64,000 nucleotides of DNA from NCBI GenBank assembly GCA_947038265.1, contig CAMQVP010000001.1, positions 60,968 to 124,967 on the forward strand, written 5' to 3'. This stretch comes from an uncultured Roseburia sp. (GTDB lineage Bacteria > Bacillota > Clostridia > Lachnospirales > Lachnospiraceae). Below the pieces are notes generated by a model. It was given only the letters and a program-made list of their open reading frames with translations. It was not told where the DNA came from and made no database searches. Positions 5,767 through 51,959 of the stretch are shown here, piece by piece. Within the stretch, counting starts at the first letter, position 1, and each line of letters begins with the position of its first letter. The position numbers and the translations under genes are program-made.

Positions 5767-6486
5767 CTATTCCCCCCTTTCACCCTTTTTTTCTATATGG
5801 CTCCTGCCAAAGACCAGACAGGCCATAATGCAAATCATAGACGGAAGGACAAAATTATCCCGCCCAAACGCCAAACGGAACAAAACCGTCGACAAAACCC
5901 CAATCACAGCCGGAATCCGTTTGCCGCCGGAAAGCCACTGCTCCACAAAAATCACAAGGAACAGAGCCGTCATTGCAAATTCAATGCCCTGCGCGTCAAA
6001 CGGAATCAGCGCCCCCGCCATTGCGCCAATCGCAGAGCCTAACACCCAATACCCCTGATCCAGCAACGCGACTGCAAACAAAAATTTATCCTCTGGAACG
6101 TCCTTTGGGATCTTAGCCGCGCAAAGAAGCGAATACGTTTCATCTGTCAGCGAAAAAATCATATAAAGCCTTTTTTTGCCCATGCGGCCAAACTTTTCCA
6201 AGAGGGAAAGGCCATAAAATATATGACGCACATTTACCATAAATGTCATAAAAATCATATCCCAGAAACCAACCTGCGGGGCAAAAAAATTTACGGCAAG
6301 ATACTGCCCGCTCCCAGCGTATACTACCATGCTCATAAAAACCGCCCACAAAAAATTATATCCTTTTTCCTGAAACATTACGCCAAACGCCGTTCCAATG
6401 AACAGATAGCCGGTAAACACCGGAATCGTATACGGAAATGCCGCGCGAAACGCTTTTGCATATCCGCCCGTCCTCTTTTGTTCCAT
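5767..6486 (-). CDS. azlC: AzlC family branched-chain amino acid permease
   Basis: 239-aa membrane protein containing ...GYLFIGTAFGVMFQEKGYNFLWAVFMSMVVYAGSGQYLAVNFF.... Confidence 0.8.
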   Translation of the reverse strand: MEQKRTGGYAKAFRAAFPYTIPVFTGYLFIGTAFGVMFQEKGYNFLWAVFMSMVVYAGSGQYLAVNFFAPQVGFWDMIFMTFMVNVRHIFYGLSLLEKFGRMGKKRLYMIFSLTDETYSLLCAAKIPKDVPEDKFLFAVALLDQGYWVLGSAIGAMAGALIPFDAQGIEFAMTALFLVIFVEQWLSGGKRIPAVIGVLSTVLFRLAFGRDNFVLPSMICIMACLVFGRSHIEKKGERGE

Positions 6487-6687
6487 TTCCTCCCCCTCTT
6501 TCCAGAAAATTCACATGGTAACTCTACACCATATAATAGGAAAATTCAATATTTTTTTTCAAGCGTTTTTTCTTTTCCATATACTGTAAAAATGCCACTG
6601 TCTGACAGGCAAATATGACTTCGTTTCTAAAAAAGAACCGGAAAGTTTCCTGAATCTAAAAAAAACGCTTCATTTTCGCAAAAAATA

Positions 6688-6696
6688 TGGTATACT
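6688..6696 (+). promoter_or_regulatory. extended -10 promoter element (TGGTATACT)
   Basis: TGnTATACT lies about 25-40 nt upstream of the candidate starts of the transglycosylase gene. The first ATG of the track ORF (6687) overlaps this element and so is unlikely to be the true start. Confidence 0.4.
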
Positions 6697-6734
6697 ATAA
6701 AAACACGATGACAGACGAAAGGATGTATGAAACT

Positions 6735-7541
6735 ATGCCAGCTATTTCAGCTTTAGAAGCATTAAACGCTGCGGTGTCCGCTTCCAATCAAATGCAGAGA
6801 AATTCCGCCAGCGAAGCAGATTTCTCCTCTTTTCTGAAAACAGAAAAAACCTTAGAAGACATCTACACGGAAGCGTCCCAGACCTATGGCGTATCCGTTG
6901 ACCTTTTAAAAGCAATGACAAGGCAGGAATCGAATTTTAACCCGAACGCCACCAGCAGAAGCGGCGCGCAGGGCCTTATGCAGCTAATGCCGGCGACCGC
7001 AGCAAGCCTTGGCGTGACAAACGCCTATGACCCTTACCAAAATATTATGGGCGGGGCGCAGTACATACGCAAAATGTTAGATAAATACAACGGAAACGTT
7101 TCCCTTGCATTAGCCGCCTATAATGCAGGCAGCAACAATGTGGACAAATACGGCGGCATCCCGCCTTTTGCGGAAACGCAAAACTATGTCGCGAAAATCA
7201 CGCAGTACCTTGCGGAAGGCGTGGACATACCGGATTCACAGACAGTCTATACGGCAGAAAGCAAGATAAAAGGCGACGCATCCGTTTCCTACCGGGATTT
7301 AAACAACTTAGCGGGAGAAATCCTGACGGAAATTTTTTCCTATGACGATTATATGAACTATCTTTCATCCCTGCTCGGACAAGACAAAACAGGCCTTGCC
7401 CTCTCCTTGTCCATCACTTCCTCATCTAACGAAAAAGATGAGGACAAAACCCAAGCCGAACCGGACAGTTATATCGCCTATGAAACCCTTTCAAACGGCG
7501 TAAAACCCGATTCTTTGACCGAAAAAACTGAACTAATCTAA
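6735..7541 (+). CDS. lytic transglycosylase (SLT domain) protein
   Basis: ...ESNFNPNATSRSGAQGLMQLMPATAASLG...AYNAGSNNVDKYGGIPPFAETQNYV... is the SLT catalytic motif. The start is ambiguous, at 6723 or 6735, and a GAAAGGA box lies at 6717-6723. Confidence 0.7.
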   Translation: MPAISALEALNAAVSASNQMQRNSASEADFSSFLKTEKTLEDIYTEASQTYGVSVDLLKAMTRQESNFNPNATSRSGAQGLMQLMPATAASLGVTNAYDPYQNIMGGAQYIRKMLDKYNGNVSLALAAYNAGSNNVDKYGGIPPFAETQNYVAKITQYLAEGVDIPDSQTVYTAESKIKGDASVSYRDLNNLAGEILTEIFSYDDYMNYLSSLLGQDKTGLALSLSITSSSNEKDEDKTQAEPDSYIAYETLSNGVKPDSLTEKTELI

Positions 7542-16768: not shown

Positions 16769-17131
16769 ATGAACTATAAATTATGTGACGGAGAATACCA
16801 TCTAATGGAAATTGTATGGGAACTAGAGCCCATTAGCTCTACCGAACTGCACAAAGTATGCCTGCCGCGCCTTGGCTGGAAAAAATCCACGACTTATACC
16901 ATGCTCCGCAAACTTTGCGGACGGGGCCTGCTTTTAAATCAAGATTCCATCGTTACTTCTTCCGTCAAAAAAGAAGAAATTGAACGTTATGACAGCAGAG
17001 AAGTGGTTGAAACACGCTTTAACTGCTCCCTGCCAAAATTTGTAGCCGCTTTCCTAGGAGAGCGGAAACTAAGCCAAAAAGATGCAGACGAACTTCAAAA
17101 GCTAATTGACACTTACCGGAAAAAAGAATAA
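16769..17131 (+). CDS. BlaI/MecI/CopY family transcriptional repressor
   Basis: 120 aa, winged helix ...EYHLMEIVWELEPISSTELHKVC...KKSTTYTMLRKLCGRGLL.... Confidence 0.85.
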   Translation: MNYKLCDGEYHLMEIVWELEPISSTELHKVCLPRLGWKKSTTYTMLRKLCGRGLLLNQDSIVTSSVKKEEIERYDSREVVETRFNCSLPKFVAAFLGERKLSQKDADELQKLIDTYRKKE

Positions 17132-17145
17132 GGAGGCGCATTTTT

Positions 17146-18882
17146 ATGACAAACATAATTATGACTTTAACCAGATTAAGTTTTCTCACTTCTATTATGG
17201 CGCTTATTGTCTTAGGCATACGGTTCTGCTTAAGAAAAGCCCCAAAAACATACACCTATATTTTATGGATATTTGTATTTATCCGCGCAATCATGCCGGC
17301 GTCCTACACGTCTGACTACAGCCTGTGGAACCTAATGCAATCTTTCTTTTCCACACATCAGACAACAGCGCCTGCCACCAATGCAGAAACGCTTAAAGCC
17401 ATTTCAAAACCCTTTGCTTTTCCAAGAGACGCGGCAGCGGCTGTTTCACAAACCAAAGAAGCGGCCTTCACAACGCAAAACCTGTTCAACCCATGGATCA
17501 TAATAGCGGCGGTCTGGGCGCTTGGAATGTCCGTTATGCTGATTTACAGCCTGTATTCCATGCGAAAACTCCGTAAAACAGTAGAATTTTCCACTCTGTC
17601 CAAAACAGCCCATGCATCTGCAAACTGCCGCATTTACGAATCCGGACAGATCAAAACCGCATTTATTTTAGGATTTTTCTCTCCCGTCATCTACCTACCA
17701 AAAGGTCTCGGTTCGTCAAAAAAACAAATGATACTGGAACATGAATCTGTGCATATCCGCCGCCATGACCACCAGATCAAAATGGCCGCATGGATTATTT
17801 TATCCCTGCACTGGTTCAATCCCCTTATGTGGGTCAGCTTTTATTTTTTAAACAAAGATATGGAATTATCCTGCGACGAACAAGTGCTTATCAACCTTGG
17901 TTCCCAAATACGGGCTGACTACAGTTCCCTCCTGTTAGACCTTGCAATGCCAAACCGCATTTCCTCTGGGATGCCGCTTGCGTTCAGCGAAGGGAACACG
18001 AAAATCCGCATCAAAAATATACTGGCTTACCGGCCTGTGAAATTCGGCGCTTCCACAGCCGCAATCCTTTTAATCTGCATTACAATATATGGCTGCATGG
18101 GAAATCCAAAAAACGAGACAAGCGTCCCAGAAACCGAACAAACCAAACAAACTGAGCTGCAAAACGAAGGAACAGAACTTCCTGCCACACCGGAAGACGA
18201 AGAAAAACTTGCCTTCCTAAATACGTTTTTAGATAACTTAGCAAACTGCCGCGCCGAAGAAATTTACGCTGTTCTTTCACCGGAATTAAAAACGGAAGCC
18301 GACACATTTATGAACAACTCATTTAACATCACTCTAAACGAGCCAAAAAAACACAGGCGGATCAACCCATTCACCCCGACAGAAACGCCTGTAATTGAAA
18401 AAACAGATTCCGGATACCATTACAAATTCAAACGGCCAGATAATTATCCGCTCCCAGAATACGATAAATTTCATTCATCTGACGTTTGGGAAGGATTTCT
18501 GACGCTAGAGGAGACGGACAGCGGAATACAGGTTACAGAATGGCAAGACGGAAGTTATAATGAAATTGCCTCGCGCGAAGAATTTGACTGGCAGTTTCAA
18601 TACTATTCTTTTGAAAAAGAAGCAGAAACAGAACTAAACTGGCTGAATGAACACCCAGACGAAGTTGCTAATCTATACTATTACAACCGCGCAAACGAAG
18701 AACCGGAAAAAATCTTAACAGAGCGTTTCCATTTGAAAAATGGGACTGTAACAGACATCAACAAAGATAAAGAAAAAGAAATGCTTATCACATATAGCTG
18801 GGATGATGGCTCTGTGATATTCCGTATGGAACAGCTTTATAATGACATCTGGTATGTAACGGGAGCAGATACGGGGAAATAA
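17146..18882 (+). CDS. BlaR1-like M56 family membrane metalloprotease / signal transducer with a non-PBP C-terminal domain
   Basis: Four transmembrane segments and the zinc motif HESVHIRRHDH with a downstream ...ELSCDE.... The C-terminal region of about 270 aa is acidic and Y/W-rich and lacks the SxxK/KTG motifs of a penicillin-binding domain. Confidence 0.8.
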   Translation: MTNIIMTLTRLSFLTSIMALIVLGIRFCLRKAPKTYTYILWIFVFIRAIMPASYTSDYSLWNLMQSFFSTHQTTAPATNAETLKAISKPFAFPRDAAAAVSQTKEAAFTTQNLFNPWIIIAAVWALGMSVMLIYSLYSMRKLRKTVEFSTLSKTAHASANCRIYESGQIKTAFILGFFSPVIYLPKGLGSSKKQMILEHESVHIRRHDHQIKMAAWIILSLHWFNPLMWVSFYFLNKDMELSCDEQVLINLGSQIRADYSSLLLDLAMPNRISSGMPLAFSEGNTKIRIKNILAYRPVKFGASTAAILLICITIYGCMGNPKNETSVPETEQTKQTELQNEGTELPATPEDEEKLAFLNTFLDNLANCRAEEIYAVLSPELKTEADTFMNNSFNITLNEPKKHRRINPFTPTETPVIEKTDSGYHYKFKRPDNYPLPEYDKFHSSDVWEGFLTLEETDSGIQVTEWQDGSYNEIASREEFDWQFQYYSFEKEAETELNWLNEHPDEVANLYYYNRANEEPEKILTERFHLKNGTVTDINKDKEKEMLITYSWDDGSVIFRMEQLYNDIWYVTGADTGK

Positions 18883-18902
18883 AAGCGGCAAAAATACGTT
18901 TA

Positions 18903-19126
18903 AAGGAGAAGGGGCTTTCTAGCAAGGGCTGTGTTCAGGGATTAAGGGTTACTAAAGCCTTCCATATACACTTTTAAATACGGACGCAACCACCGCAAAC
19001 ACGCCTTCCATGGCGTGGCTGCGGTTTGCCCTGCCTTCCATGGCAGGGCATTGCTGACTGTGTATGGAAAGCTTAAGTAACCCTAAATCCCATCACAATG
19101 CCCTTGCTAGAAAGCCCCTTCTCCTT
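18903..19126. repeat. long nested palindromic element E1 (27-bp perfect terminal inverted repeats flanking 170 bp)
   Basis: Left arm AAGGAGAAGGGGCTTTCTAGCAAGGGC at 18903-18929; right arm GCCCTTGCTAGAAAGCCCCTTCTCCTT at 19100-19126. The interior has further imperfect inverted repeats (tgtgttcagggattaagggttactaaag ... gcttaagtaaccctaaatcccatcacaat) and a central dyad ccttccatggcgtgg/ccttccatggcaggg. Confidence 0.8.
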
Positions 19127-19149
19127 CAAACGGCGTTTCGTCGATCGAT

Positions 19150-19530
19150 AGGAAGTTTTGGGAAGTTTTTTATATGATTGCATCTATAAGGGGGTTGGGG
19201 TTGGGTTGGAATTTTGGAACATAGTTTCTTATGTCTGTGATTTATATGGATGCTGATATAGAGTATTATTTGGGGTGGCGTTGTTCCATTGTATCTATTT
19301 TGGTTCTCTGATAAAATACTATTTTTCTGTATAACTAATGGCTCAATTTACATACAATACATTGATTTTAGTTTGTTTGTAAAGTTACGTCTTATAGCTT
19401 TTTTCATTGTTTGGTTGTGGATTTTCTATATAGTAATGTTTAATTATTCTATCTTACTATATTAGACAAATAGTTTTTGCAGAAATTTTTTGTTGTTGTA
19501 ATCTGAATATTTTGATATTTTTGTTTTTAT
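19150..19530 (+). other. cytosine-depleted T/G-rich low-complexity tract
   Basis: By eye about 50% T, 20% G and under 10% C on the plus strand. It contains the G-run gggggttggggttgggttgg and no credible ORF (the track ORF 19531..19833 is F/L-rich). Confidence 0.7.
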
Positions 19531-19671
19531 ATGTTTTTTACCACTAATGACATACACTTTGCAAACATCTTTGACGCATTCTACGAATCTATTGTTCTTT
19601 TATTCTTCTTTGAATCTCTCTATATTTTAATTTTTCGTTTTGATAATTATTTTCTATATATTTCCTTCCAG

Positions 19672-20092
19672 TTCATTGAAAATTTCAACCATCACGCAAA
19701 CCATATTTTTTTGCTAACGACTTCTCTAAGATTCTTTCTAGGAAATCAAAAAAACATCAGAAATCGCCTATATGATTGCGATCGCTTGCATCTGCGGCAC
19801 ATGTATCGTTTGCTTGTTCTAATCTTTTTTTGAATCAATCATTGCATTGGATCTATCATTTCCTAATACGATTTCTTCCTATTCATTGATACTCTCAACC
19901 ATCACGAAAACCATATTTTTCTGCTAACGACTGCAAAAATTCTTTCTTTGAGATCCAAAAAGAACCTCAAAAATCAGGACACTTATATCTAACGCAATTC
20001 TATCTGGCTCTCTCCATCTATCAGAAAATCTCTATATCTATTCCATCCACTACGCTCCACCTCTATATTCCGCCGTCTGCCAACGCTGTAGT
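19672..20092 (+). repeat. two diverged tandem copies of a repeat of about 200 bp
   Basis: ttcattgaaaatttcaaccatcacgcaaaccatatttttttgctaacgact... at 19672 aligns with ttcattgatactctcaaccatcacgaaaaccatatttttctgctaacgact... at 19873. Identity is about 75-80% over about 110 bp, with a period of about 201 bp. Confidence 0.65.
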
Positions 20093-20334
20093 CATCGGGC
20101 GGATGCAATAGGGCTGTCTTGTTCGTTGCCTTGTGATTGGATTTAGAGTTTCTTAACAATCCCATTCCAGTCACAAGAATCCGCGAACAGGACGTTCGCG
20201 GAAGTCCTAATGCGCCATGGACGGCGCTTTTAGGACGGTTCTGTACGGCGCCAATAAAAAAACGGGATTGTTTAGAAACTCTTAATCCATGAACACAACA
20301 ACGAACAAGACAGCCCTATTGCATCCACCCGATG
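20093..20334. repeat. long nested palindromic element E2 (36-bp terminal inverted repeats with one mismatch, flanking 170 bp), related to E1
   Basis: Left CATCGGGCGGATGCAATAGGGCTGTCTTGTTCGTTG at 20093-20128; right CAACGAACAAGACAGCCCTATTGCATCCACCCGATG at 20299-20334. The inner inverted repeat ggatttagagtttcttaacaatccc / gggattgtttagaaactcttaatcc shares about 24 of 27 nt with the inner repeat of E1 (tgtgttca.ggattaag.gtt.ctaaa). Confidence 0.8.
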
Positions 20335-20418
20335 ACGGACGCCCCCACAGCCCCCTTTGTAACTTTTCTTCTCTTTCATCATAAATTATATAGATAGAAA
20401 AAAAGGAGACTTTTCACT

Positions 20419-22242
20419 ATGGCTATCGGTTATCTAATCCTACAAGCCCGTACCGCGCACGATGCCGTCCCATTAAGCGGCGTCAGGATTAAAATCTTAG
20501 ATCCCCTCGGAAACAATGTCTATGAATTATCAACAGATGAAAACGGAGAAACGCAGAAAATCCCCCTTGAAACTTTAAGCAGAGATTTTTCCCTAAACCC
20601 CTATTTTACAGAACTTCCCTATATCAGTTACAATGTCCGCACCCTCGCGGACGGCTTCCATTCCCTTTTTGTATCGGATATTCCCATCTATGAAGGCGAA
20701 ACCGCTATCCTGCCGCTTACGCTGATTCCCATGGAAACGAACAGACGCAATGCGCTGCAAACGGAAATCTCTGTCGGAAAACCTGCAGTCGCAATGGATA
20801 AACCCCGCCATCAGGAAGGAATGCCACAGGGAAATTATGTGCTCAGGCAAGTCGTAATCCCAAATCCAATTACTGTGCATCTTGGCTCGCCTTCTTCGTC
20901 CGCTTCTAATGTGCGGGTTTCGTTTCCAGACTATATTAAGAACGTTGCAAGCAGTGAAATCTACCCAACATGGCCGGAAGCTTCTCTAAGAGCTAATATT
21001 TACGCCATTATCACGTTTGCCTTAAACCGCGTTTATACGGAATGGTACAGAAGCCGCGGCTATAATTTTGATATTACAAATAATACCGCCTACGACCAGT
21101 ATTTTGTCTATGGAAGGCCGATTTATGATTCCATCAGCAGGATTGTAGATGAAATTTTTAATGAATATGTCCGCAGGAAAGGTCAGAACAACCCATATTT
21201 TACCTCGTTTTGTAATGGAACGACTGCCACTTGCCAAGGGCTTTCGCAGTGGGGTACGGTTTCTTTGGCGGAACAGGGCATGACCCCGATTGGCATTCTC
21301 CGTTCTTATTATCCAAAGGATATTGAAATCGCGCAAACGGATATTATCACGGGTATGCTTTCTTCTTATCCGGAAACGCCGTTAAAGCTTGGAAGCCGCG
21401 GCTTGAATGTGCAGACGATCCAGACTTACTTAAACAGGATACGGAAAAATTATCCGGCTATCCCGAAGATTACTGATGAGACAGGTGTGTTTGGGAAAAG
21501 CACGCAGGACGCAGTGAAAAAATTCCAGTCTGTGTTTCACTTGGCTTCTGATGGGATTGTTGGAAAAAGCACATGGTATAAGATTTCAAGCCTTTATACT
21601 GCCGTTACCAGACTTGCGGAATTAAATGGAGAAGGGGAAACGCTTGGGATCGGGACTGTGCCGCCGGATTCTTTGCTCCGTCAGGGAAGCAGGGGTCAGG
21701 ACGTAATTATTTTACAGTATTTGCTAAATGTGATTTCTGAATATTATGTCGGAGTTCCAGCTCCTGCGCAGGACGGCATCTTTGGAAGCCAGACCGCTCA
21801 GGCTGTTTCGGCTTTTCAAAGGATTATGCGTTTAAATCCGGACGGCATTGTAGGGCCTTTGACTTGGAACGCGCTTTATGAGGCTTATCGGGGAATCGAG
21901 CAGAATATTCCGTCTTTTGGACCGGATCAAGGGACGATTGAATATATCGTTCAGGCAGGTGACACGCTTTGGGCGATTGCCAGAAAATACGGCACGACGG
22001 TTGATGTGTTGAAAAGTTTAAATGGATTAGACAGCGATTTACTGAGGATTGGACAGAAGCTGAAAGTGCCTGTTTCCCAGAGCGCCCCCTCCTATACCGA
22101 ATATACGGTGCAGTCGGGAGATACGCTTTGGTCGCTTGCAAAAAGATACCATACCACGGTAGATGCGATTAAGCAGTTAAATAATCTGTCAAGTGACTTA
22201 CTTAGGATTGGACAGATTTTAAAAATACCTGAAAACAGGTAA
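20419..22242 (+). CDS. SpoIID/LytB-domain cell-wall protein with 2 peptidoglycan-binding (PG_binding_1) and 2 LysM domains
   Basis: SpoIID-type motifs ...EASLRANIYAIITFALNRVY..., ...FDITNNTAYDQYFVYG... and ...CQGLSQWGTVSLAEQGMTPIGILRSYYP.... Two ...GSRG.NV..IQ.YLN...DGIVG..TW... modules and two C-terminal LysM repeats (YIVQAGDTLWAIARKYG... and YTVQSGDTLWSLAKRYH...). GGAG lies 9 nt upstream. Confidence 0.75.
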   Translation: MAIGYLILQARTAHDAVPLSGVRIKILDPLGNNVYELSTDENGETQKIPLETLSRDFSLNPYFTELPYISYNVRTLADGFHSLFVSDIPIYEGETAILPLTLIPMETNRRNALQTEISVGKPAVAMDKPRHQEGMPQGNYVLRQVVIPNPITVHLGSPSSSASNVRVSFPDYIKNVASSEIYPTWPEASLRANIYAIITFALNRVYTEWYRSRGYNFDITNNTAYDQYFVYGRPIYDSISRIVDEIFNEYVRRKGQNNPYFTSFCNGTTATCQGLSQWGTVSLAEQGMTPIGILRSYYPKDIEIAQTDIITGMLSSYPETPLKLGSRGLNVQTIQTYLNRIRKNYPAIPKITDETGVFGKSTQDAVKKFQSVFHLASDGIVGKSTWYKISSLYTAVTRLAELNGEGETLGIGTVPPDSLLRQGSRGQDVIILQYLLNVISEYYVGVPAPAQDGIFGSQTAQAVSAFQRIMRLNPDGIVGPLTWNALYEAYRGIEQNIPSFGPDQGTIEYIVQAGDTLWAIARKYGTTVDVLKSLNGLDSDLLRIGQKLKVPVSQSAPSYTEYTVQSGDTLWSLAKRYHTTVDAIKQLNNLSSDLLRIGQILKIPENR

Positions 22243-26755: not shown

Positions 26756-29700
26756 TTATTTTACTTTTACCTTAAATACTACTTTTTTACCTGTGCCATC
26801 TGTCGCAGCCGCCGTAATTTTCACTGTTTTGCCTTTCTTCGCATTTTTTGCAATTTTTACTTTTGCAGAAGCCGCCTGCTTGCCTTTCCCTTTTACAGTG
26901 GCAATCGCAGGATTCGAAGAAGTCCACTTCAATGCCTTATTCACGGGCTTACCGCCTTTTGTCTTTACTTTTGCTTTTAATGTGACTGTTTTATTCCGCG
27001 CCGCCGTTACGTTCTTTTTCCCGCTTGCCGTAACTTTAGACACGCTTCCCTTCATAATCTGAATCGTTGCCGTTGCAGACACTTTGCCATCTGCCGTTGA
27101 CGCCATAACGACAACTTTCTGTTTTGCTCCTTTCGCAGATAGCTTAACGCTGCCGCTTCCACTTAACTGCGCATACTTGTTATTTGAAGTAATTTTCCAT
27201 GTAAGCTTTTCACTTTTTGCGCTTTCTGGCAGAATCGTTAGTTCTTTTAGCAAATTAATTGATTTTCCTTTTGCTATTTGATATTTGGAAGATTGAAACT
27301 TCAAGCTAGTTACTTTCGTTGTTTTCGTTTCTTCTTTCTTTTCTGCTAAAGCTATCCTAGCTTTCGTAAGATTCGCCGTTAAAGTTTCAATACGCTGTTT
27401 TGAATATCCGGCTAATTGTTTATCCGTTATATTTTTCACAGAGTTATAAACATTGACAAACGCATTCCATGTTTTATCCGTATAATTCTTCTTTCCCGCC
27501 TGAATGATTCTTGCTGACGTCTGCCTTTCACTTTTAAATTTAGAAATTGCATTTTTCTTAGCCGTGTCTGTCTGAGTAGAGGAACCGCCATTATTCTGAT
27601 TTTCCTCATCTTTTTCCCAGTCTGCATAAAGCGTTAAGTCTTCCGTTACCGCTTCTTCTGAAAAATCAAAATCTTCTCTAAGCCCTTTATCCCGATACCA
27701 AACGCCGGTAAATGTATAACCGCTTCTTTTTGGAACCGTTTCCGGCGGGGTCACAAAACTTCCCGCTTCCACTTCTTTTGTCTCCGGCTGTGATCCTTCG
27801 TAGTTCCAGTCAAATGTCACCGTACATTTCTGCGCGCCAGACCCATTTTGATTCCATTCTGCATAAAGCGTCAGGTTATCCGTTACTTTTTCTGTCGTAA
27901 AGTCATATTCTTCCGTACATGCCTTATTCAAGTGCCATTTTCCTGTAAACGTATAGCCTTCCCGCTCCGGAGCTTCATCCGGCGGAGCCACACTGCTTCC
28001 GGCATCCACTTCTTTTCGAACTGTGTTTCCACCTTCATAATTCCAGTTAAATGTTACGATATAAGTTTCCGATGCCACTCCGTCTTGCCGCCAGCCTGCA
28101 TACAACGTCAAATTATCCGTTACTTTTTCTGTCGTAAAGTTATATTCTTCCGTACATGCCGCATCACGGTACCATTTTCCTGTAAACGTATAGCCTTCCC
28201 GCTCTGGAGCTTCATCCGGCGAAGCCACACTGCTTCCAGCATCCACTTCTTTCCGAATTGTCGTTGCGCCTTCATAATTCCAGTTAAATGTTACGATATA
28301 AGTTTCCGATGCCACTCCGTCTTGCCGCCAGCCTGCATACAACGTCAAATTATCCGTTACTTTTTCTGTCGTAAAGTTATATTCTTCCGTACATGCCGCA
28401 TCACGGTACCATTTTCCTGTAAACGTATAGCCTTCCCGCTCCGGAGCTTCATCCGGCGAAGCCACACTGCTTCCGGCATCCACTTCTTTCCGAATTGTCG
28501 TTGCGCCTTCATAATTCCAGTTAAATGTCACGATATAGGTTTTTGACGCCACTCCATCTTGCCGCCAGCCTGCATACAATGTGAGGTCGCTTGTTACATT
28601 TTCCGTAAAATCATATTCTTCCGTACATGCCGCATCACGGTACCATTTTCCTGTAAACGTATAACCTTCCCTGTTTGGAGCCGTAAGCGGAGCCACTGCC
28701 GGACTGCCGGATTCCACAGTCTTCGTCTCAACGTCAGCTCCCTCATAATTCCAATTAAATGTCACGTTATGTTCAGGAATTTTATCCTGATTCCAGCCTG
28801 CATAAAGCGTCATATTGCCTGTTACCTTCTCTGTAGCAACGTCAAATTTCTGAGCGCAGTCTGCATCCCGATACCACTCTCCCGTAAAGGTATAGCCTTC
28901 CCTGTTCGGAGCCGTGTCTGGAGCTGTCACTACACTGCCTTTCTCTGCTTCTACTCTTTCAGTTGATGCATTTTCATAATTCCAATGGAATGTAACCGTA
29001 TAAATAGGCACAAGATCATCGATTGCATTTTGCAAATCCGCCGCCACACTGTCTACCCTGCTTTGCGCAACGTACGCGCTGTCTTTTATCTTTTCTGCCG
29101 AAGCTATTTCCGTTCTTAACGCCTCTAAACTGGAAGCGGTATATTTTCCTGAAAGATGAATTGCCGCTTCTTTTAAAAGATCTTCCAATACAGATTTATC
29201 CACGGACGTCCCATCTGTCAAATCCTCTAATGCTGACAACAACGCATTTTTTGCTTCCCTGATTTCATCAAATGTCGCAGAATCTCCTTTTTCTGCCACT
29301 GCTTTCGCCTGATCATACGCCTCAACATATGCTGTCCATTTTACCGGATTATAAAATTCTGCATCGTCTTTTATAAATTCTGCCGCTTCGCAGAGACTAT
29401 CTAAATCAGCCTTTATATCCGATAGTTCAACATCTTTTGTATATGACATCGCCGTTTCCAGCTTACTTTTCACCTGCCGGATCAGATCGGTAGAGTCACA
29501 ATCAGCCGCTATTTCACGGGCTTCTGCAATCGCCGCCTGCAATTTTGTCCAGCTTTCCTCTGAAAAATCCGTTTTTTCCAGATTTTCCGCCTCTTGGATT
29601 AGCCGGTTTATTTCCGTTTTGGCTGTTTCCAACTCCTCTTCATTCTCTGTTTTCCAGCCTGCATAAAGCGTGATCGATTCCGTAACTTTCTCTGTATTAA

Positions 29701-32700
29701 AATCGTATTCCGTCTTACAAACCGCTTCTTTATACCACTTTCCGGTAAATATCTGCCCTTCTCTCTCTGGCGTCTCCTCCGGTTCTGTCGCGGCAAATCC
29801 ACTTGTCACTTTATTCGTGATGTTCGTTGAGCCAGAATAATTCCAATCGAACGTAACCGTATAGACTTCTATCAGCGCAGTCGCTGTCCTGTTTAATTTT
29901 TCTAACGCTTCGTCAATCTCTGATAAAGATGCGTTCCCTTTGTTTAAAACTTCATCGGCTTTTTTACGCGCATGATCAAAAGCTGTAAAGCTTGCGGCAG
30001 TATAGGCATCTGCCTGATATGCTGCGCTCATATACTTCGTGTATAAAGTCTGCAGCTGCTCTTTCTTTGCAGTGATCTCATTCAATGCGCTGTTATTCAA
30101 TGCGCTGTTTAAACTGTCCGTCGCTGCTTTTAAGCTGGAAACTGTAACGCCGTCTTTTAAAATCGCTTTTGCTTTTGTAATTGCTCCTCTTAAAGCGAGC
30201 CATCCTTTCTCTGAATAATCGCTTTCTTCTTTTCCTTCAGCAGTTTTAATTAACGATTCTAAATCCGCTATCCCGTCTACCAGCGTCCGATTCGCCGCCA
30301 TATATCCTTGCTCTACAGGATTGCTGGAATAATCAATATCCAAATGCGCCAGAATTTCCTTTATCGCCGCATAGTTTCCATGTCCACTAAATACTTGAAT
30401 TTGTAAATAATGCCCAAATTTCCCATCTTTGTTTGTAGTTTCCGGCAGCGCCAAAACTTCTTCTGTACCGGTTATATCTGTAACTTTCTCTCCTTCCACT
30501 CTATTAATTCCCGTTTCTGGATTGTTCATTATCTGATAAGTGGATTCATTATAGGCATCGCCTGTAACCAATTTATATGACTGAATATACCCATTGGTTC
30601 CACTCGGCTTTTGTAAGGCTTCTATCGAATCATATTCTGATAAATCCCTTGGAAATTCAACCGTAAACACCGCCGGATTTGTTTCTGAAACTGTAAATCC
30701 GCTATACTGTGAATGCCAGTATGTATTTAATTTTCCATCTACTGCCAAATTTGCGACGCCATCGCCATAAGTATTTCCATTCTTGTTATTCTCTTGGGTA
30801 TTCGCCCACGCTTTTCCACTGAGATCTTCATCTCCCTCATACTGTTCCGGCAGCGTCACAGTAGCGCTCACACGCTCAGACGTCCCATCACTAAAAACAG
30901 CCTCTGCCGTTATTGTAGCCGTGCCAACTCCTACAAAATATACATTTCCATACTTATCGACAAGGGCAACATCCTCATCACTGGAGCTCCAAGAAATACT
31001 TGGATTCTGCCCGTTGCTGTTTCTAAAAACAGCTTTTAATTTGACTGAATCTTTCGCAGTAACCACTTCTACATTTGATGGGCTGATCACAGTTTCTTCT
31101 GTTGCCGGCAGAATATTGCTGACTTTAATTGTCGTCTCCGGTGTGCCTGCAAAGGCAATTTTTCCTGCTGTGTCAGCGCTCACTGAGCCGCCTGCATCTT
31201 CCTGTTCAAAAATCTTTTCCCCATTAATCTCTAAGCTGAATTTCCGATCATTTGTCCATGATATCCGGACTCTTTTCAGATTGTCCGCTCCCGGATTATC
31301 TTCTCTATCTCCTTGATACCATGGGGAGTTGTCTTCTGAATACTTTTGCCAAAACCAGCCATAGTCATCAAATCCGAAAAACATGCCTAATGCTTTGTCA
31401 CTTCCATTCTTATAACCCATATACACGCCCATCCAGTTCTTGCCGGTATATTCCAAATCAAATTCGAAAAATCCCTCATGGGTAAAATCAAATGTCTGTT
31501 TACTTACAAATGTTGTCGGAGAGCTGTAAGAGCTGGATGAACCGCCCGTTAACTCCAATACTCCATTTTGAGACGAAACAACCGCGCCATTCGGGTTCCT
31601 GTCAGCTATCCATTCTCCTTCCAAAATTTCAGGCGGAATTTCTTTCCACTTTGCATATAGGATAAGATTGCTCTTTACAACTGCGTTAAAATCATATTTT
31701 TTCTCAAACTTACTGTCCGCATACCAGTTGACAAACTCATATCCTTCTTTTTCCGGCATTTCGTAAAGCATTTCTTTCGTCGGCTTTACTGCTTTTCCAT
31801 TTAATGCAACCGTCTGGCTTAAAGCATGCACTTCGGCGCCGTCACTCATAAAAGTCACCGTAAATGTCTTTTTCTCCAGATTTATTGCGTCAATTGCCGC
31901 TTTTGCCGCTTTCAGCGCAGCATTTACTCCCGCAATATCCGACGCTTTGTCAATATTCGCTTTGCCTTCCGCGATTGCGCGCTTTAGTTCAATTCTCTGG
32001 TCATATTCATTGATATTCGTATAATTGTCAAGTTTCTGTTTCGCTTCCTCCTTTGCCTGCGCCAATTCTCTTTCTGCCGCCTGCTCTTTTGTTTCAATCG
32101 AATCCAGATTTTCTTTCGCTTCCTGCAATGCGGCGTTCATGCCGGATATATTCATCGCTTTGTCAATCGCCGCTTCTCCTGCCGCAATCGCTTCCGCCCT
32201 TTTCGTCTTGCTTTCAGCGCCATAGTTGTCCGCGTTCGTATATTCGTTCAATTCCGTCTTTTTTGCATTCTTTAAAGTCTGAATCGCTGTAACTATCCCT
32301 GCCAGATTCTCTTTCACAACAACTTTACATGCAAAAGATTGTGACTCCTCATCAGCATAAGCCGCCGTAACTGTTGTTTCACCTGCTCCAACTGCCGTAA
32401 TAATGCCATTTTCGTCCACTGACGCTGCTCCCGGATTCGAAGAAGTCCAGACTGCCTTTCCCCTATCATCCTGCAAAAGGGACAAATTCTCCGCTATCGC
32501 AGCGCGGTCACCCGAAACCAGATAAATATTCTCTTTATTATCCTGATTCCCAAATGCCGCTTCCTTAAATACGGCAGTTGAACCGGACGGGCCTGACGTT
32601 TCAATTTTTAGATTGCGAATCCCTTCAATATCAAGGGATAACGACGTTTCCAAATCTCCTGCTGAAGTGTCAAATTGATACAATGGCTGTGGATTGTCAT

Positions 32701-35700
32701 CCCCATAAATTTTCACCTCAGCCGCATTATTTCCCAAACTTCCTTCTATGACGATCTGAGAAGTAAATTTGTCAAATTCCTTTCCAATTAAATCCGCAGT
32801 AACCGTAGTCCCAGCCGGAATTGAAACTGATTTTAAGGTCTCATCTTTTTGGACAGAGGCATCCCAACTGCCTAATGTCAAATCGCTGAGATAACTGGTT
32901 GTCAAAGCTTTCTCAAACTTCTCATAAAGACAAAATTCTGCCGCCGTAATAAATTTATTTGCCCCGCCCTCTCCTGCGGTAGTCAGCGCGCGGATTCTAA
33001 TTCTTCTTGCATTTTTTGCGTCAAACTCCAAACTCTTTGTATTGGCATTATCCGCCCATGTAATGGACGGTAAAGTGATTTTTTTAAAATCCTCGCCGCT
33101 TTCCGTCTCGCTGTAATATAATTCACAAGAAAGAATCCTTCCGTTATTATTATTACCTTGCCTTGGAACATAATCCAATTTCCCAATGTCTATATTTTCA
33201 GGAAGCGTAATTGTATAATTCCCCGGAACATTAACCTGATCATATTTCGTATGCCAAATCGTCCCTAAATCTTTGTCAAGGGCTTTCTGCGCCCCTTCAT
33301 CTACGCTGTTTTGGCTGTCCGCCACGGCGCTTAACGCGCTTGAGTCTATTTTGTGATAACCATAAATTGTTTGCTCGTGCCCCAGGATACGGCCATAAAC
33401 CGCATCATACGCCGCCTTTTCCTCATCATCTAACAGCTCATATGCCTTTGCAAGCGCAATTTTTGCATTATGGAACTTGCTTTCAGAAGCCAAATCGTCC
33501 ATTGCCATATGCTCCAACAGATAATCGGAATAACTGTTCATCATGGACACAAACACGTCTTTTTGCTTTGCTTCATTCCAGCCTTGCTGCATAAGCCCTC
33601 TGTCTGTCATCACATAGGTCACAGTTTTTATCCCGCTGTTTCCTTCAATATAATACGCCGGAATATCTTTTTTAGTATACTGGCTTGTATAATACATTTT
33701 TCCAATTTCTTCATGATCCAGTTCTATTTTCGTTCCAACCGGAAAGTCAAAATCCTCATTATACGCATCCGCTTTATCTTTTCCAGTTAAAGTCCGGTCA
33801 AACACTTTCGTCCCAGACGAATTATACACACGGACTGCGACATACTTATTCTCAAAATATACATGCGGCTCTACATTATTGATTCTGACGTTAATCTTAT
33901 TTTCCCCTGTTTTTTGCGAAACAACGATAATTTCGCCGCCCATGCCCGTCATACGGATCTGCATATCGTCCGCCAGCAGGTTGCCTGTTACTTTTTTATA
34001 TTCCAAATCCTTCGTAACGGCTCCTTTTGCCGCTACCAGATACTCATTGCCATACTGATAGTTTTTTTCCCGTGGCATTGGAAGCTCTACTTCATAAATG
34101 CCCACTGGGAGAGTCGCCGTAATCTGGGCGTTTTCAACCGGAAGCCGCTTAACAATCTTTGACCCGTTTTTGATAACGACATATTTTCCCTGGATCTTTT
34201 CTAAGTCATCAATCGACACATTCAACGTAACATTGCTTGTGTCATTCCGTTGAAGCTCCGCCAAATCGTCTGTGCTGACAAGGCTGTAAATGCCGTTCAT
34301 TACCTTGCCTTTTTCTGCAAGCGCCTGACGGACTGTTTCCGCTTCTTCATCGTTTGTATAGAGATTTCTCAGATAATAAAGCATCGGCAAATCCTGATCA
34401 TAAATTTTATCTTCTAAAACTTCCGATGCGTGGATATGCCATCCTTCAAAATAAGGGATTACATTATATCCGCCCGTCTGGCTGAAACTCTCTACGATCG
34501 CCTCTGAAGAAGACATATTGCTTCCATGCTCGTAATTATATTTACGGAAAGTCGTATGCATTGCCGCCGTCGTTTTTTCCGGTCCCAGACGGTCGAGCAT
34601 ATTGACAAACATAAACAGACTGTTCTTATACATTTTCCGTCCTGCAGTGATGTCATTAAATACAGGCACTGCATTACGCGTCTGCTCCGATTCCCTTCCG
34701 AGCGCATTATACGCTTCCAGTTTCGTACTTCCATACCCGCCTAAAAGCCATCCAAAATCCTTCTCCGGACGGTAAGTCGGTTCAAAATAATATCCCATAA
34801 TATTATTCGTCGTCTCTACAAAAGAGTTTTCCTGATTTGCAATCGCCCCTTCATACCCATGCCCGAACTCATGCAGGGAAGTCCAGTCTTTATACAAATA
34901 GGAGCCAAGATTATCCCCGTGGAACGCGCTGTGATCTCCGGAATAGTATGCAAGTCCTGCGCCATTTACGTTCGCTTTAATAAAGAATTTTGCCCGAACG
35001 TTTTGATTATAAGGCTTATCCGTATAAAAATCCAATCCGGAATACGCATCATACTGTTCTTCAAATGCCGCCGCCCAGTCTAACATCTCATCAATCGTAT
35101 GAAATTGGTAGACTGGATCGTTTTTCTTATCCGGATGATCTATAATCTCATACCTGTTCTTCCTTGGCGCCAAAAACGTAGCCGCCTGCCCTTCTATAAT
35201 CGCAAACGAATCTTCTGTTTTATCCCAATCAGAAAAGAACGCCGACTCATCATCTCCATACCGGTAATAAGGAATATCACGGTAAGCATCGTTCCATTCC
35301 ACCTCAACCACCGGCTGTACCGTCGTATTCTTTGGCGTATAAATAAACGGCACGCTGTCCACGCTCTTTTTCTTCTCATTTTCTATACACTGGTTTTTTA
35401 CCGTGATCCATTCCCCACCAGCAGGAATGCGGACAGAATCCTTCGGGTCAGACTCTTCCTCTCCCTTCACTTCAACCAGTTTTTCCGTAGTTGCATCAAT
35501 ATTCAAAAGCTTTAAATTCAATTCTTTCGTAAACTCTGTATGATTAACCAGACGGATTTTCATAGTTTCATTTTCCGGCAGCCAAAAACCCAGATTCTGC
35601 CTGTCATGGTTATATCCTCTGTTAAACCCGATATTCGTCAAATGGGACGCGTCCGGAAGCGTATACAAGATCCTCTTGATATTCTTTTTCTCCGTGTCCC

Positions 35701-36094: not shown

Positions 36095-36358
36095 AACAAA
36101 TAAGACCTCCTTCTGAAAATTGTTCACAAAATGTACAGTTATTCTCATTATAGAATCTTTCCTGCCATTTTACAACCACTTTTTTACATTATTTTTTCAA
36201 AAAAATATAAGCCAAACAGACAGAAAGCAGTCAGCGGATCACATCGAAAATGCAAACAAGCTGAAATCAATTTCATATAGTTTGCACAAAATTCTTATGC
36301 CAAATTTATCAAAAACGCCTATTTACAATCTAAAGAATACCATATATCCTATAAAAAT

Positions 36359-49423: not shown

Positions 49424-49519
49424 AAGTCATTCCTCCTTTTGCAAGTGGGGCTTAATAGTATTATTATGTCACAGAGGGCGGGGAATTTCAAGTTGGAAAT
49501 GATTTTAAAAATGTTGATT

Positions 49520-49549
49520 GGGGTGGGGTGAGGCAGTGAGGCAGTGAGG
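49520..49549 (+). repeat. tandem octamer repeats GAGGCAGT/GAGGCGGC leading into palindrome E3
   Basis: gggtggggtGAGGCAGTGAGGCAGTGAGGCGGcagacgc. Confidence 0.6.
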
Positions 49550-49677
49550 CGGCAGACGCAAAACTATAGTTCATTCAGACACGCTCTCGCTCTTAGAAGC
49601 CAGTAGCGGTTCTAAGTTCGAAAAAACCTCACTAAGAACCGACAGGCTTCTAACGGTCTTCATTGAACTATAGTTTT
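49550..49677. repeat. nested palindromic element E3 (24-bp perfect terminal inverted repeats flanking 80 bp)
   Basis: CGGCAGACGCAAAACTATAGTTCA at 49550-49573 and its exact reverse complement at 49654-49677. Inner imperfect repeats cttagaagcc / ggcttctaa and gttctaagt / actaagaac. Confidence 0.8.
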
Positions 49678-49739
49678 GCGTCTGCCGCGGAACGTCTTTG
49701 GGGATCAATATTTTTAAATTTGCTTGTTAGGGAGTGTGG

Positions 49740-50280
49740 GAAGTTGGACTTTTTTGATTTATTATGGGTTTGTTTCTGGGGGATTTTATATTATTTTTTG
49801 TTGTATCTTTTTGTTTGGGCTGTCTTTTTGACTTCGTAGATGTTTTAGTTATATTTTTTGTTTTTCTTTCTGTCTTTTTGATTCGGAGCAGATTCTTTTT
49901 GTTCATTTTTTTATTGTTGATTTTTGATTTATTTTTGTTATTTATTATTTGAGTTTTTTGTGTCTTGTTTTTTTATTTTATTTTCGTAGTTCGTTTTGTA
50001 GTTTGTTCTTATGATTTGTTTTTTGGTTTTTTTATCTTCTTGGGAGACGCATTGTTTCTGTTAAGTTGTTTAAGGTTTTCTTTCCAATTTATTTTTTGGA
50101 AGGAGGGGGAATGTTTCGTTTTGTTAGTTTATTATTTCCGATTTTTTTAATATTATGGATTAATATGTTGTGTATTCGTTTTTTATTTTCTAGAAATTTT
50201 GTGTGGGAGATTTTTAATGGATTTTTAGTTTTCTTTTTATTTATGAGTGATTAGTTTTATTTGCTGATTTTACTTTTAAT
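49740..50280 (+). other. cytosine-depleted T/G-rich low-complexity tract of about 540 bp
   Basis: By eye about 60% T, about 20% G and under 10% C on the plus strand. Only F/L/V-rich artefact ORFs are present (49764..49952, 49965..50150, 50066..50254). Confidence 0.7.
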
Positions 50281-50849: not shown

Positions 50850-51959
50850 ATGAATTTAAAAAAACGAATATCTCTGTTTTCCATATTGCTGTTTCTTTTT
50901 ACTGTTGGTTTCTTGGGCTGTGGCAAAACTGATCCTGTGAAAAAAACGGTTCCGGAACGGGAGGAGGCAGAAGAAACTAGTTCAGGGCAAATGCTTCCTT
51001 CTGAATATGCTGACAGTGAAATGATTCAGGATAACGAGGAGATTCCTACAGAAACTGAACTTATTTTGGATGCAAATGCGGCGGAACCATTTCCGGAAGC
51101 GGCAGAAAACCCAGACAGTATTTCCACGACGGAAATTATTACAACGGATACTGTGAATATCCGCATTGCTCCGGATTTAAACGCTGACGTTGCCCAAAAA
51201 GCGGCGCGGCGGACTGTGTTAAATAAGGTTTCTGAAGCAGATGGCTGGACTAAAATTTTAATGGAGAATTTTTTTTATTATGTAAAAAGCGATTATGTAA
51301 AAGATATGCCTGCCGCGGGTGAACGCACAGGATTTCTTGTTGCAATCGATGCTGGACATCAGGCTAAGGGAAACAGTGAAACGGAACCCATCGGGCCTGG
51401 CGCATCTGAACAGAAAGCGAAAGTCGCTGGAGGCACAAGAGGCGTTTCAAGCGGGCTTGCCGAATATGAACTTACTCTGCAGGTTTCTCTGAAATTGCGG
51501 GACGAGCTTACGGCCCGCGGATATGAGGTGCTGATGATTCGGGAAAGCAATGATGTCAATATCAGCAATGCAGAACGCGCAGAAATTGCAAATCAGGCGG
51601 GGGCAGACGCGTTTTTGCGTATCCATGCAAATGGTTCGGAAAACAGCGGGGCAAACGGAGCTATGACAATCTGCCAGACGGCGGGCAATCCTTATAATGC
51701 CGCGCTTTACAGTGACAGCAGACGTCTGTCTTCTCATGTATTAGACGCTCTTTCCGCGGCAACGGGATGCCAAAAACAATCTGTTTGGGAAACGGACACT
51801 ATGACCGGGATTAACTGGTGCCAAACGCCGGTTACGATTGTCGAAATGGGCTTTATGACTAATCCCACGGAAGATTCTAATATGGCAAATCCCGATTACC
51901 AGTACAAAATTGCCCAAGGAATTGCAGACGGCGTGGACGCTTATTTTCAGGCAGAATAA
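50850..51959 (+). CDS. N-acetylmuramoyl-L-alanine amidase (Amidase_3) lipoprotein with SH3-like domain
   Basis: Lipobox LFLFTVGFLGCG, the SH3b-like segment ...TDTVNIRIAPDLNADV...DGWTKIL..., and the Amidase_3 segment ...LVAIDAGHQAKGN...LRIHANGS.... AAGAAAGAGGG lies upstream. Confidence 0.85.
   Translation: MNLKKRISLFSILLFLFTVGFLGCGKTDPVKKTVPEREEAEETSSGQMLPSEYADSEMIQDNEEIPTETELILDANAAEPFPEAAENPDSISTTEIITTDTVNIRIAPDLNADVAQKAARRTVLNKVSEADGWTKILMENFFYYVKSDYVKDMPAAGERTGFLVAIDAGHQAKGNSETEPIGPGASEQKAKVAGGTRGVSSGLAEYELTLQVSLKLRDELTARGYEVLMIRESNDVNISNAERAEIANQAGADAFLRIHANGSENSGANGAMTICQTAGNPYNAALYSDSRRLSSHVLDALSAATGCQKQSVWETDTMTGINWCQTPVTIVEMGFMTNPTEDSNMANPDYQYKIAQGIADGVDAYFQAE

Follow-up and report, generated by a model that had tools for sequence, protein, structure and literature searches.

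TwoAYGGAY RNA elements in a back-to-back pair of long foldback rods: probable structured sRNA genes from a dispersed, possibly MITE-like family

MITE-like structured repeats include bcr1 of Bacillus cereus, the Correia elements of Neisseria, ERIC, the pneumococcal BOX and RUP elements and REPIN doublets. The conserved part of such repeats is their terminal inverted repeats, some of them are accompanied by short AT-rich target duplications, and in REPINs two inverted copies move together as a doublet. Among regulators of CsrA, the known antagonist in Firmicutes is a protein, FliW, and not an sRNA.

The TwoAYGGAY RNA motif (Rfam RF01731) was discovered in 2010, and its long closing stem was already described in the supplement of the discovery paper (Weinberg et al. 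2010, Genome Biol 11:R31). Its resemblance to the CsrA motif has led to the proposal that it binds CsrA (PMC4333381). A 2025 preprint still refers to TwoAYGGAY as a 'relatively unexplored motif', and, on term probing, preprint 10.64898/2026.09.22.753630 names RF01731 nine times and CsrA not at all. In the papers searched we found no functional study of TwoAYGGAY and no published mention of a divergent-pair architecture, of dispersal or of lineage-specific presence.

Two copies, E1 and E2, lie in the window analysed here, a 64,000-nt stretch of DNA from an uncultured Roseburia sp., to which all coordinates refer; source annotations label the organism a 'Eubacterium sp.' MAG. The cmscan search suggested in the earlier note identified both cores at once: E1 (18931-19098, minus strand) matches RF01731 with 131.2 bits (E = 1.3e-23) and E2 (20131-20296, plus strand) with 121.4 bits (E = 2.2e-21), each over model positions 1-168 of 168, the Rfam gathering score being 43 bits. 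Because the 170-bp cores match the covariance model over its full length, E1 and E2 are two new members of this known RNA family. The earlier proposal of a pair of structured ncRNAs was right in kind, both cores being RF01731; the RNA role itself is one that we infer from the features set out below. The core is a three-way junction with two hairpins that carry GGA-containing loops, closed by the P1 stem. GGA is found in all four terminal loops (4/4): E1 has AUGGAA twice (5/6 to AYGGAY), the second loop of E2 is AUGGAC (6/6 to AYGGAY), and the first loop of E2 is the variant CAGGAC, which lacks a canonical AYGGAY, as do the first loops of many family members (ACACGAUG). Weak matches to mir-203 and mir-144 are chance matches on the hairpin, and a third foldback in the window (49504-49718) is unrelated in sequence to TwoAYGGAY.

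Both cores are enclosed in complete foldback rods. RNA folding gives one nested rod of ~258 nt with 85-nt arms for E1 (18886-19143, minus strand; -160.2 kcal/mol, z = -15) and one of ~246 nt with 76-nt arms for E2 (20091-20336, plus strand; -152.1 kcal/mol, z = -16), and in neither case did any of the dinucleotide shuffles fold as well (0/200). In a repeat search, the imperfect inverted repeats reach 18886-18970/19059-19143 in E1 (85 nt, 82%) and 20091-20166/20261-20336 in E2 (76 nt, 87%). The rods amount to ~85 bp in total, including outer segments beyond the Rfam model whose arms are complementary at 27/27 positions in E1 (18903-18929/19100-19126) and at 35/36 positions in E2 (20093-20128/20299-20334), with one C/A mismatch on the plus strand. 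The earlier note had described these segments exactly, as 27-bp perfect terminal inverted repeats and as 36-bp terminal repeats with one mismatch, and the 170-bp spacing that it gave between them holds for the interior of both elements (170 nt). Its long nested hairpins are borne out by the folds, and so is its view of E1 and E2 as diverged, inverted homologues with differing terminal repeats: the outer arms are unrelated (17/36 alike), and a single covariance model recognizes both elements at full length on opposite strands, with 118/186 identities between the cores in inverted orientation (core identity ~63-70%). The combination of conserved subterminal and variable perfect terminal repeats had been called unusual, which was an overstatement, as it is the long, poorly conserved P1/external stem known for the family. 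The 5' sides of E1 (minus strand) and E2 (plus strand) both face the spacer, resulting in a back-to-back layout.

Upstream of the pair lie genes for a BlaI-like repressor (16769-17131, plus strand; Pfam PF03965) and a BlaR1-like M56 sensor (17146-18882, plus strand; Pfam PF05569), the first base of E1 falling 4 nt past the blaR1-like stop codon. Downstream lies the gene for a LysM/PG_binding_1 cell-wall protein (20419-22242, plus strand), previously labelled SpoIID-like; the SpoIID match stands exactly at the Pfam cut-off. E2 is followed by a C-rich, G-poor 3' tail, ACGGACGCCCCCACAGCCCCC (20337-20356, plus strand), containing the motif CCCCCACAG common to the L055 copies of the family, with which E2 also has asymmetric (non-palindromic) flanks in common. 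The promoter/RBS region of the LysM gene (20357-20418, plus strand; TGTAAC...CATAAATTATATAGATAGAAAAAAAGGAGAC) begins directly after this tail, downstream of E2, and is conserved in species that lack the elements.

The AT-rich spacer between the rods (19144-20090; 24-34% GC) is non-coding and contains a C-depleted tract, as the earlier note had it: its ORFs are of low complexity only, a 100-aa ORF is without a Pfam match, and the left half is C-poor (9.2% C) and the right half G-poor (10.3% G), so that the sense strand of each element is depleted of G for ~500 nt upstream. Since other pairs are without this GC-skew flip, we take it to be locus-specific. The two diverged tandem repeats of about 200 bp reported in the spacer were also found, as a decayed tandem duplication (19662-19975, plus strand) with a ~210-bp period, in which 19662-19765 and 19872-19975 are 80% identical.

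Alignment of the window to loci L124-L126 defines a lineage-specific block of 1.47 kb (18887-20356) made up of E1, the spacer, E2 and the tail. In the sister species the synteny is identical and the intergenic region is only 134 nt long with a plain terminator; at the position of the block it has ~75 nt with an intrinsic terminator, where E1 stands in the window. The orthologous loci of five further relatives contain no TwoAYGGAY copy. On parsimony, the block would have been gained in this lineage rather than lost in the sister species. An empty site of the kind asked for earlier is seen between species but was not found within the species: neither the four assemblies nor metagenomes screened for the sister-like empty-allele pattern yielded an empty allele, and a one-sided anchor search of metagenomes recovered a single allele, the filled one.

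We compared E1 and E2 with a family sample of 137 TwoAYGGAY copies in about 60 Lachnospiraceae genomes; true pattern matches come from Lachnospiraceae-type genomes throughout. Outer stems were assessed by flank duplexes with a swapped-flank control, chosen over MFE folding with +/-150-nt flanks, which over-extended the stems, and over a strict outward stem walk, which stalled at the internal loop separating P1 from the outer stem; both of these methods were dropped. Beyond the model, perfect Watson-Crick runs reach a median maximum length of 20 bp, compared with 5 bp in the swapped-flank control, and the corresponding flank duplex energies are -74.5 and -25.2 kcal/mol. Compensatory double changes occur in 54 of the 83 pairs of the extended rod, and 93% of its cells are paired, compared with 81% when shuffled and 37-45% when slid, with 0/500 shuffles reaching the observed values. 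The long outer stem is thus a family-wide and strongly covarying feature.

Several properties of the family are polar. G-U pairs outnumber A-C mismatches in the family stems (333 versus 81); in hairpins of single-stranded DNA, too, no mismatch is more stable than the G-T wobble, so this asymmetry cannot separate RNA from ssDNA function. Runs of at least five C are found on the 3' side of the hairpin in 17/101 copies, compared with 1/101 on the 5' side. Adjacent copies are divergent in 21 cases, convergent in 2 and tandem in 0 (P = 3e-11; 137 copies, about 60 genomes), and the divergent pair, as in E1/E2, is the preferred arrangement of the family. The core-to-core spacing of E1 and E2, 1032 nt, is the longest among the 21 divergent pairs (121-758 nt in the others), and the gap between rods goes down to ~70 nt in pairs of other genomes. 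Partners usually belong to the same cluster, so a heterotypic rule under which type A cores would pair with type B cores in every case does not hold in general. Upstream of the hairpins, no consistent sigma-70-type promoter was found at any one distance (mean best score 7.33 versus 7.07 in the control), and no intrinsic terminator follows the rods, there being no T-run past E1 or E2 on either strand. Orientation relative to neighbouring genes is random (59:59 and 55:52); because of this, and because E2 stands upstream of the conserved LysM promoter, the elements are not cis-regulatory.

Taken together, E1 and E2 are probably two divergent structured sRNA genes from a family that is dispersed and possibly MITE-like. 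Each copy is a ~250-nt rod composed of a conserved core, the P1 closure and a copy-specific, near-perfect outer stem of 27-36 bp. The G-U excess, the C-rich 3' tails, the 21:2 ratio of divergent to convergent pairs and the non-palindromic conserved flanks lead us to infer that both elements work at the RNA level, on the Rfam strand; transcription is predicted to run most likely outward from the spacer common to E1 and E2. The long perfect stems would most likely stabilize the core or act as RNase III-type double-stranded processing stalks, and the most likely ligand of the two CAUGGAUG-like loops would be a dimeric RNA-binding protein, in line with the CsrA-sponge hypothesis in the literature. 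TwoAYGGAY RNA may titrate a CsrA-like protein; a tblastn search found neither csrA nor fliW in the 64,000-nt stretch and in ~1 Mb of retrieved loci, a result of little weight for whole genomes. This negative, the lack of a consistent promoter and of an intrinsic terminator, the unit of one subfamily that has no obvious promoter, and the loops without a canonical AYGGAY count against the sRNA reading. The block would have been gained in the lineage through duplication or MITE-like dispersal of the pair unit, and E1 would, as a by-product, now stand in for the blaR1 terminator.

Two readings confined to the locus itself have to be weighed against divergent sRNA genes. The earlier note had suggested an invertible or excisable segment with E1 and E2 at its boundaries. 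As inverted repeats they could frame, for instance, a phase-variable promoter switch, and the position of two inverted homologues on either side of AT-rich, non-coding DNA ahead of a cell-wall gene would suit such a device. However, this one orientation is common to four independent, collinear assemblies of the species, with 7 point differences, and no empty allele was found within the species, so that inversion or excision is unsupported. It is also hard to reconcile with the low identity of E1 and E2, which have no identical core beyond a few bases, with the lack of a recombinase gene among the ten flanking genes (Pfam), with a conserved LysM promoter outside the segment and with the ~70-nt rod-to-rod spacers seen elsewhere, and we regard it as extremely unlikely. 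A strictly local role would make E1 the 3' hairpin or terminator of blaI-blaR1 and, with E2, an insulator before the LysM gene, with no function in trans. The extreme stability of both rods, whichever strand is folded, and the start of E1 just past the blaR1 stop, in place of the sister species' intrinsic terminator, speak for this role; but neither rod is followed by a U-tract, position and orientation relative to genes are random across the family, a terminator would not need conserved loops and a conserved junction, and termination needs neither a 1-kb spacer nor a second element. A role of this kind is improbable.

The distribution of the family bears on a reading as non-autonomous mobile DNA, MITE-like or, as doublets, REPIN-like, in which the hairpin and the conserved core would be recognized as DNA, possibly single-stranded, by a transposase encoded elsewhere, the RNA motif would be a by-product and E1-spacer-E2 a composite insertion. 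In keeping with this reading, TwoAYGGAY copies are dispersed and intergenic, with at least 9 per genome; copies within one MAG can be 89-94% identical at unrelated loci with the element alone in common (L017/L071, L025/L100, L045/L101 and L009/L032); the pair unit is present as three paralogues with sharp outer ends in one MAG; the sister species' site is without the block; a canonical promoter was not found; and assemblies break at the elements. (Loci L102, L109 and L110, considered as orthologues, proved to be paralogues within one MAG.) One subfamily has discrete termini, GATTCGGGTGTCAAAAGG...CCTTTTGACACCCGAATC, an example of the terminal inverted repeats that are conserved within some subfamilies only, and the direct repeats at its two sides co-vary (L037 TTTTTAAG, L017 TATAAG, L071 TATAT(T)AG); these TSD-like repeats amount to 26 compared with 19.3 +/- 2.9 when permuted (p = 0.007), in a test of six copies only (n = 6) with AT-rich flanks. 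The dispersed unit of this subfamily ends exactly at the hairpin base and therefore carries no obvious promoter. Across the family, by contrast, conservation lies in the interior and variation at the ends, the reverse of a TIR-defined MITE, and the 21:2 excess of divergent pairs and the strand-specific 3' tails are unexpected for a symmetric DNA foldback. The spacer and arms of the window have no siblings in 120 loci (blastn), plasmids or phages, and no TSD is recognizable at the ends of the 18887-20356 block. Among the 25 most frequent of the 195 families matched by 132 neighbouring proteins there is no transposase or integrase, and no protein family is enriched among the matches listed; the ten genes that flank the pair do not include a transposase either. 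For TwoAYGGAY itself, plasmids and phages gave no match and viral contigs a single one. The absence of an empty allele within the species also counts against mobile DNA. The earlier note's foldback or MITE-like element thus finds partial support at the level of the family, in its dispersed multi-copy state, its near-identical copies at unrelated loci, its subfamily repeats and the absence of the block from the sister species, but for E1 and E2 themselves sibling copies, conserved TIRs, TSDs and a transposase were not found. We consider mobile DNA of this kind unlikely. A tentative synthesis, possible although short of probable, is that TwoAYGGAY is a self-propagating, strand-specific foldback element of Lachnospiraceae that spreads as single rods or REPIN-like divergent doublets without a linked transposase, its outer stems being kept near-perfect by hairpin selection or by arm-to-arm template-switch correction; the block in the window would then be such a doublet, inserted at a gene terminator whose place it took.

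For the window, the assignment is routine annotation, in that a catalogued RNA motif gains two copies; of wider interest is the family as a whole. Its regularities, comprising obligate covarying rods, divergent pairs, dispersal, C-rich tails and a block gained or lost between sister species, provide experimental handles. Under the sRNA-gene reading that we favour, a TwoAYGGAY RNA that does sequester CsrA would be, as far as we know, the first sRNA in Firmicutes to antagonize this protein. If mobile, TwoAYGGAY would stand out among MITE-like repeats in being defined by its interior and not by its ends. Long palindromes break metagenome assemblies, and MAG contiguity in gut Lachnospiraceae is affected as a consequence.

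Compared with MITE-like repeats and REPINs, TwoAYGGAY elements are similarly short, non-coding, intergenic foldbacks present in many copies and forming long hairpins once transcribed; they differ in that their termini vary and a complex internal junction and loops are conserved across genera, and neither a transposase nor a RAYT is known to serve them. With rRNA-type processing stalks and RNase III substrates, they would share pairing that is kept while the sequence is free and a conserved RNA enclosed by the stem; the likeness is purely one of analogy, and TwoAYGGAY is not known to be cleaved or to have processed ends. In the cmscan output, RF01731 is placed in Rfam clan CL00106, which we take to be the Csr/Rsm clan, and the TwoAYGGAY loop CAUGGAUG resembles the CsrA SELEX consensus RUACARGGAUGU. 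The Csr/Rsm sponge sRNAs (CsrB, CsrC, RsmX/Y/Z) are like E1 and E2 in presenting GGA in hairpin loops and in having several paralogues per genome. TwoAYGGAY RNAs, however, carry two GGA sites each, compared with 5-22 in CsrB and the Rsm RNAs, and these sit on a very long perfect rod, unlike those of the sponges; we know of no GacA/UvrY-type control of TwoAYGGAY. The closest system remains the TwoAYGGAY family itself. The rods of E1 and E2 run 27-36 bp past the Rfam model, and three of their four loops depart from AYGGAY in the way given above; nothing essential sets them apart: at about three times the gathering score, they share with the described family its junction, GGA loops, long P1 stem, intergenic and not cis-regulatory placement, and gut Clostridiales/Lachnospiraceae host.

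We scanned the entire window with Rfam at the gathering threshold and obtained only three matches, one tRNA-Leu and two full-length copies of the TwoAYGGAY RNA motif (RF01731). The latter form the cores of the palindromic elements E1 (18886-19143, minus strand; core 18931-19098, 131.2 bits) and E2 (20091-20336, plus strand; core 20131-20296, 121.4 bits), both far above the gathering score of 43 in the covariance scan that the earlier note had proposed. The "170-bp cores" of that note are therefore two copies of TwoAYGGAY, and its proposal of two diverged copies of one family in opposite orientation holds. The motif was published in 2010 (PMC2864571) and is still termed "relatively unexplored" in a 2025 preprint; E1 and E2 are new members of an already known, functionally uncharacterised RNA family.

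The anatomy is as the earlier note described it. The E1 arms (18903-18929 and 19100-19126) are complementary at 27 of 27 positions and the E2 arms (20093-20128 and 20299-20334) at 35 of 36, each with 170 nt between them; when mismatches are allowed, the inverted repeats reach 85 nt and 76 nt per arm, respectively. RNA folding predicts a single nested rod for E1 (–160 kcal/mol, z-score –15) and for E2 (–152 kcal/mol, z-score –16), matched by none of 200 dinucleotide shuffles. The spacer (19144-20090) is likewise non-coding, with no credible ORF and no Pfam match for its 100-aa ORF, and comprises a C-poor left half (9.2% C), a G-poor right half (10.3% G) and a decayed tandem duplication with a period of ~210 bp. 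Near E1, at 19191-19210, it carries a GGGGTT-type G-rich micro-repeat (GGGGGTTGGGGTTGGGTTGG); read on the sense strand of E1, this is C-rich and precedes the rod on its 5' side.

The flanking genes identified with Pfam are ordinary chromosomal genes, with no recombinase, transposase or phage gene among them. The elements are preceded by genes for a DUF6034 protein and a two-component system and by a BlaI/BlaR1-like pair, which ends at 18882; downstream lie a LysM/PG-binding protein starting at 20419, whose SpoIID match falls exactly at the Pfam cut-off, and VTT, AP-endonuclease and aminotransferase genes. Further along, a surface protein of 3130 aa is encoded at 26756-36148 on the minus strand. 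Precomputed Pfam matches of the corresponding gene in locus L001 are to Peptidase_M60, mucin-binding, F5/F8 type C, GH101_N and Big_2, suggesting that the host is a mucin-degrading gut organism.

Within the species, the intergenic region hardly varies: three ENA contigs show 7 differences in 1.5 kb, and one JGI contig, which breaks inside E1, is 99.7% identical. A sister species (LysM protein 82% identical) has the same synteny and a BlaR1-LysM intergenic region of only 134 nt with a classic terminator (AGAGCATATAGAA...TTCTATATGCTCT, then a T-run); its homology to the window ends directly after the stop codon and restarts at TGTAAC, ~20357. In five more distant relatives, the LysM upstream regions (51-250 nt) hold no TwoAYGGAY copy and share the proximal promoter/RBS block found downstream of E2 in the window. 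The most parsimonious reading is that the window's lineage gained the 1.47-kb block (18887-20356), which took the place of the blaR1 terminator.

Scanning one genome for each GTDB species with a core pattern yielded at least 120 loci, and an HMM built from these identified at least 137 copies; all copies among the loci listed are in Lachnospiraceae-type genomes. Ten pattern matches in other phyla were rejected as chance matches. Copies at loci L038, L051, L061, L066 and L083 lie on short contigs of Senegalimassilia-, Bacteroidaceae- or Butyricicoccaceae-labelled bins and may represent Lachnospiraceae contamination from binning, not a broader host range. Many copies, including those of L006, L061, L063, L068, L070 and L104, lie within ~50 nt of the extreme ends of MAG or metagenome contigs, and contig L137 begins within E1 at window position 19105; it seems that short-read assemblies tend to break at the long palindromes.

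Outer stems are general across the family. For each copy, the longest perfect Watson-Crick run that its 5' and 3' flanks can form beyond the Rfam model was measured; the median is 20 bp (10th-90th percentile 11-31) vs 5 bp when flanks are swapped between copies, and the flank duplex energy is –74.5 vs –25.2 kcal/mol. In a 17-member subfamily, 83 consensus pairs make up the extended rod. Compensatory double changes occur at 54 of these pairs (31 in the outer helices), and 93% of cells pair, compared with 81% after shuffling and 37-45% with partners slid. The combination of conserved subterminal and variable perfect terminal repeats, considered unusual in the earlier note, is the known anatomy of TwoAYGGAY. 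One subtype, 90% identical over 255 nt, occurs at unrelated loci in Coprococcus hominis (L026, ~1030-1330) and Eubacterium sp. MSJ-21 (L029, ~6590-6890); its outermost 17-20-bp arms are only ~60-70% identical between the two, yet in each copy they still pair perfectly or nearly so. The outer stem therefore evolves faster than the core while pairing is kept.

The elements have a strand polarity and do not act as cis-regulators. On the Rfam strand, 333 G-U pairs were counted vs 81 A-C mismatches, and a C-rich tract lies 3' of the rod in 17 of 101 copies and 5' in one. The tail motif of E2 (CCCCCACAG) recurs in copies from another genome, as does an upstream block; orientation relative to adjacent genes is random. 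Adjacent copies (within 2.5 kb; 23 among the loci listed) are arranged minus-then-plus like E1/E2 in 21 cases and converge in two, with no tandem case (P = 3e-11). Pair partners belong to the same core cluster in most cases, and core-to-core spacers of the other pairs measure 121-758 nt, the window pair being the longest at 1032 nt. Three paralogous pair units in one Lachnospira MAG have sharp outer ends in common and a poorly conserved central spacer. An orthologous divergent pair in two species (L036, ~6300-6400, and L093) conserves spacer blocks, one a perfect palindrome (CATAGATTGTC...GACAATCTATG) and another CGCATATTGGGCAGATAAATC, which are candidate regulatory sites of the pair.

At this locus, two rod-shaped TwoAYGGAY elements stand in the family-typical divergent arrangement, and evolutionarily maintained pairing, strand polarity, dispersal and lineage-specific presence accompany it. 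E1 and E2 most likely function as RNAs transcribed outward from the spacer. Their long stems, free in sequence and constrained in pairing, would lend stability to the core or serve as stalks for double-strand processing, and their two CAUGGAUG-like loops would engage a dimeric RNA-binding protein, CsrA being the published candidate. The weak points of this RNA reading are that neither a sigma-70 promoter signal at a fixed position near the copies nor an intrinsic terminator after the rods was found, that some dispersed units stop at the hairpin base, and that tblastn located no csrA or fliW gene in the window or in ~1 Mb of the loci. G-T wobble, moreover, is tolerated in single-stranded DNA hairpins too.

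The main rival, a MITE/REPIN-like DNA element, draws on dispersal: at least nine copies are present per genome, 89-94% identical copies sit at loci otherwise unrelated by tblastx within one MAG and between species, and one subfamily has discrete termini with flanking direct repeats covarying on both sides (TTTTTAAG, TATAAG, TATAT(T)AG; permutation p = 0.007, from six copies only). Against it, the 25 of 195 families listed for 132 proteins encoded near the copies include no transposase and none that is enriched, and no target duplication is recognisable at the block at window-sister divergence. We consider it rather unlikely, and the foldback or MITE-like idea of the earlier note has partial support at the level of the family; the two views are compatible, as TwoAYGGAY could be a mobile, RNA-encoding repeat. 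Plasmid and phage collections gave no match and viral contigs one. That E1 and E2 bound an invertible or excisable segment, as the note also suggested, is effectively excluded because their identity is low, no recombinase gene is among their neighbours, all assemblies share one order and orientation, and the segment does not include the LysM promoter. The observation in that note is confirmed and its interpretation partly supported. A useful by-product is a set of family regularities, namely the divergent doublets, the extended rods with their covariation, the dispersal, and a gain or loss that separates sister species.

A third long foldback (49504-49718) lies in the second large non-coding gap of the window (49424-49849 region). 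The Amidase_3 cell-wall hydrolase gene at 50850-51959 is downstream of it. This foldback matches no Rfam family and is not similar in sequence to TwoAYGGAY. Its 25-bp perfect arms (49549-49573 and 49664-49688), 90 nt apart, are nested in a second inverted repeat (fold z = –8). G-rich repeats (GGGGTGGGGTGAGGCAGTGAGGCAG) precede it on the plus strand; seen from the minus strand they form a C-rich 3' tail, as many TwoAYGGAY copies have.
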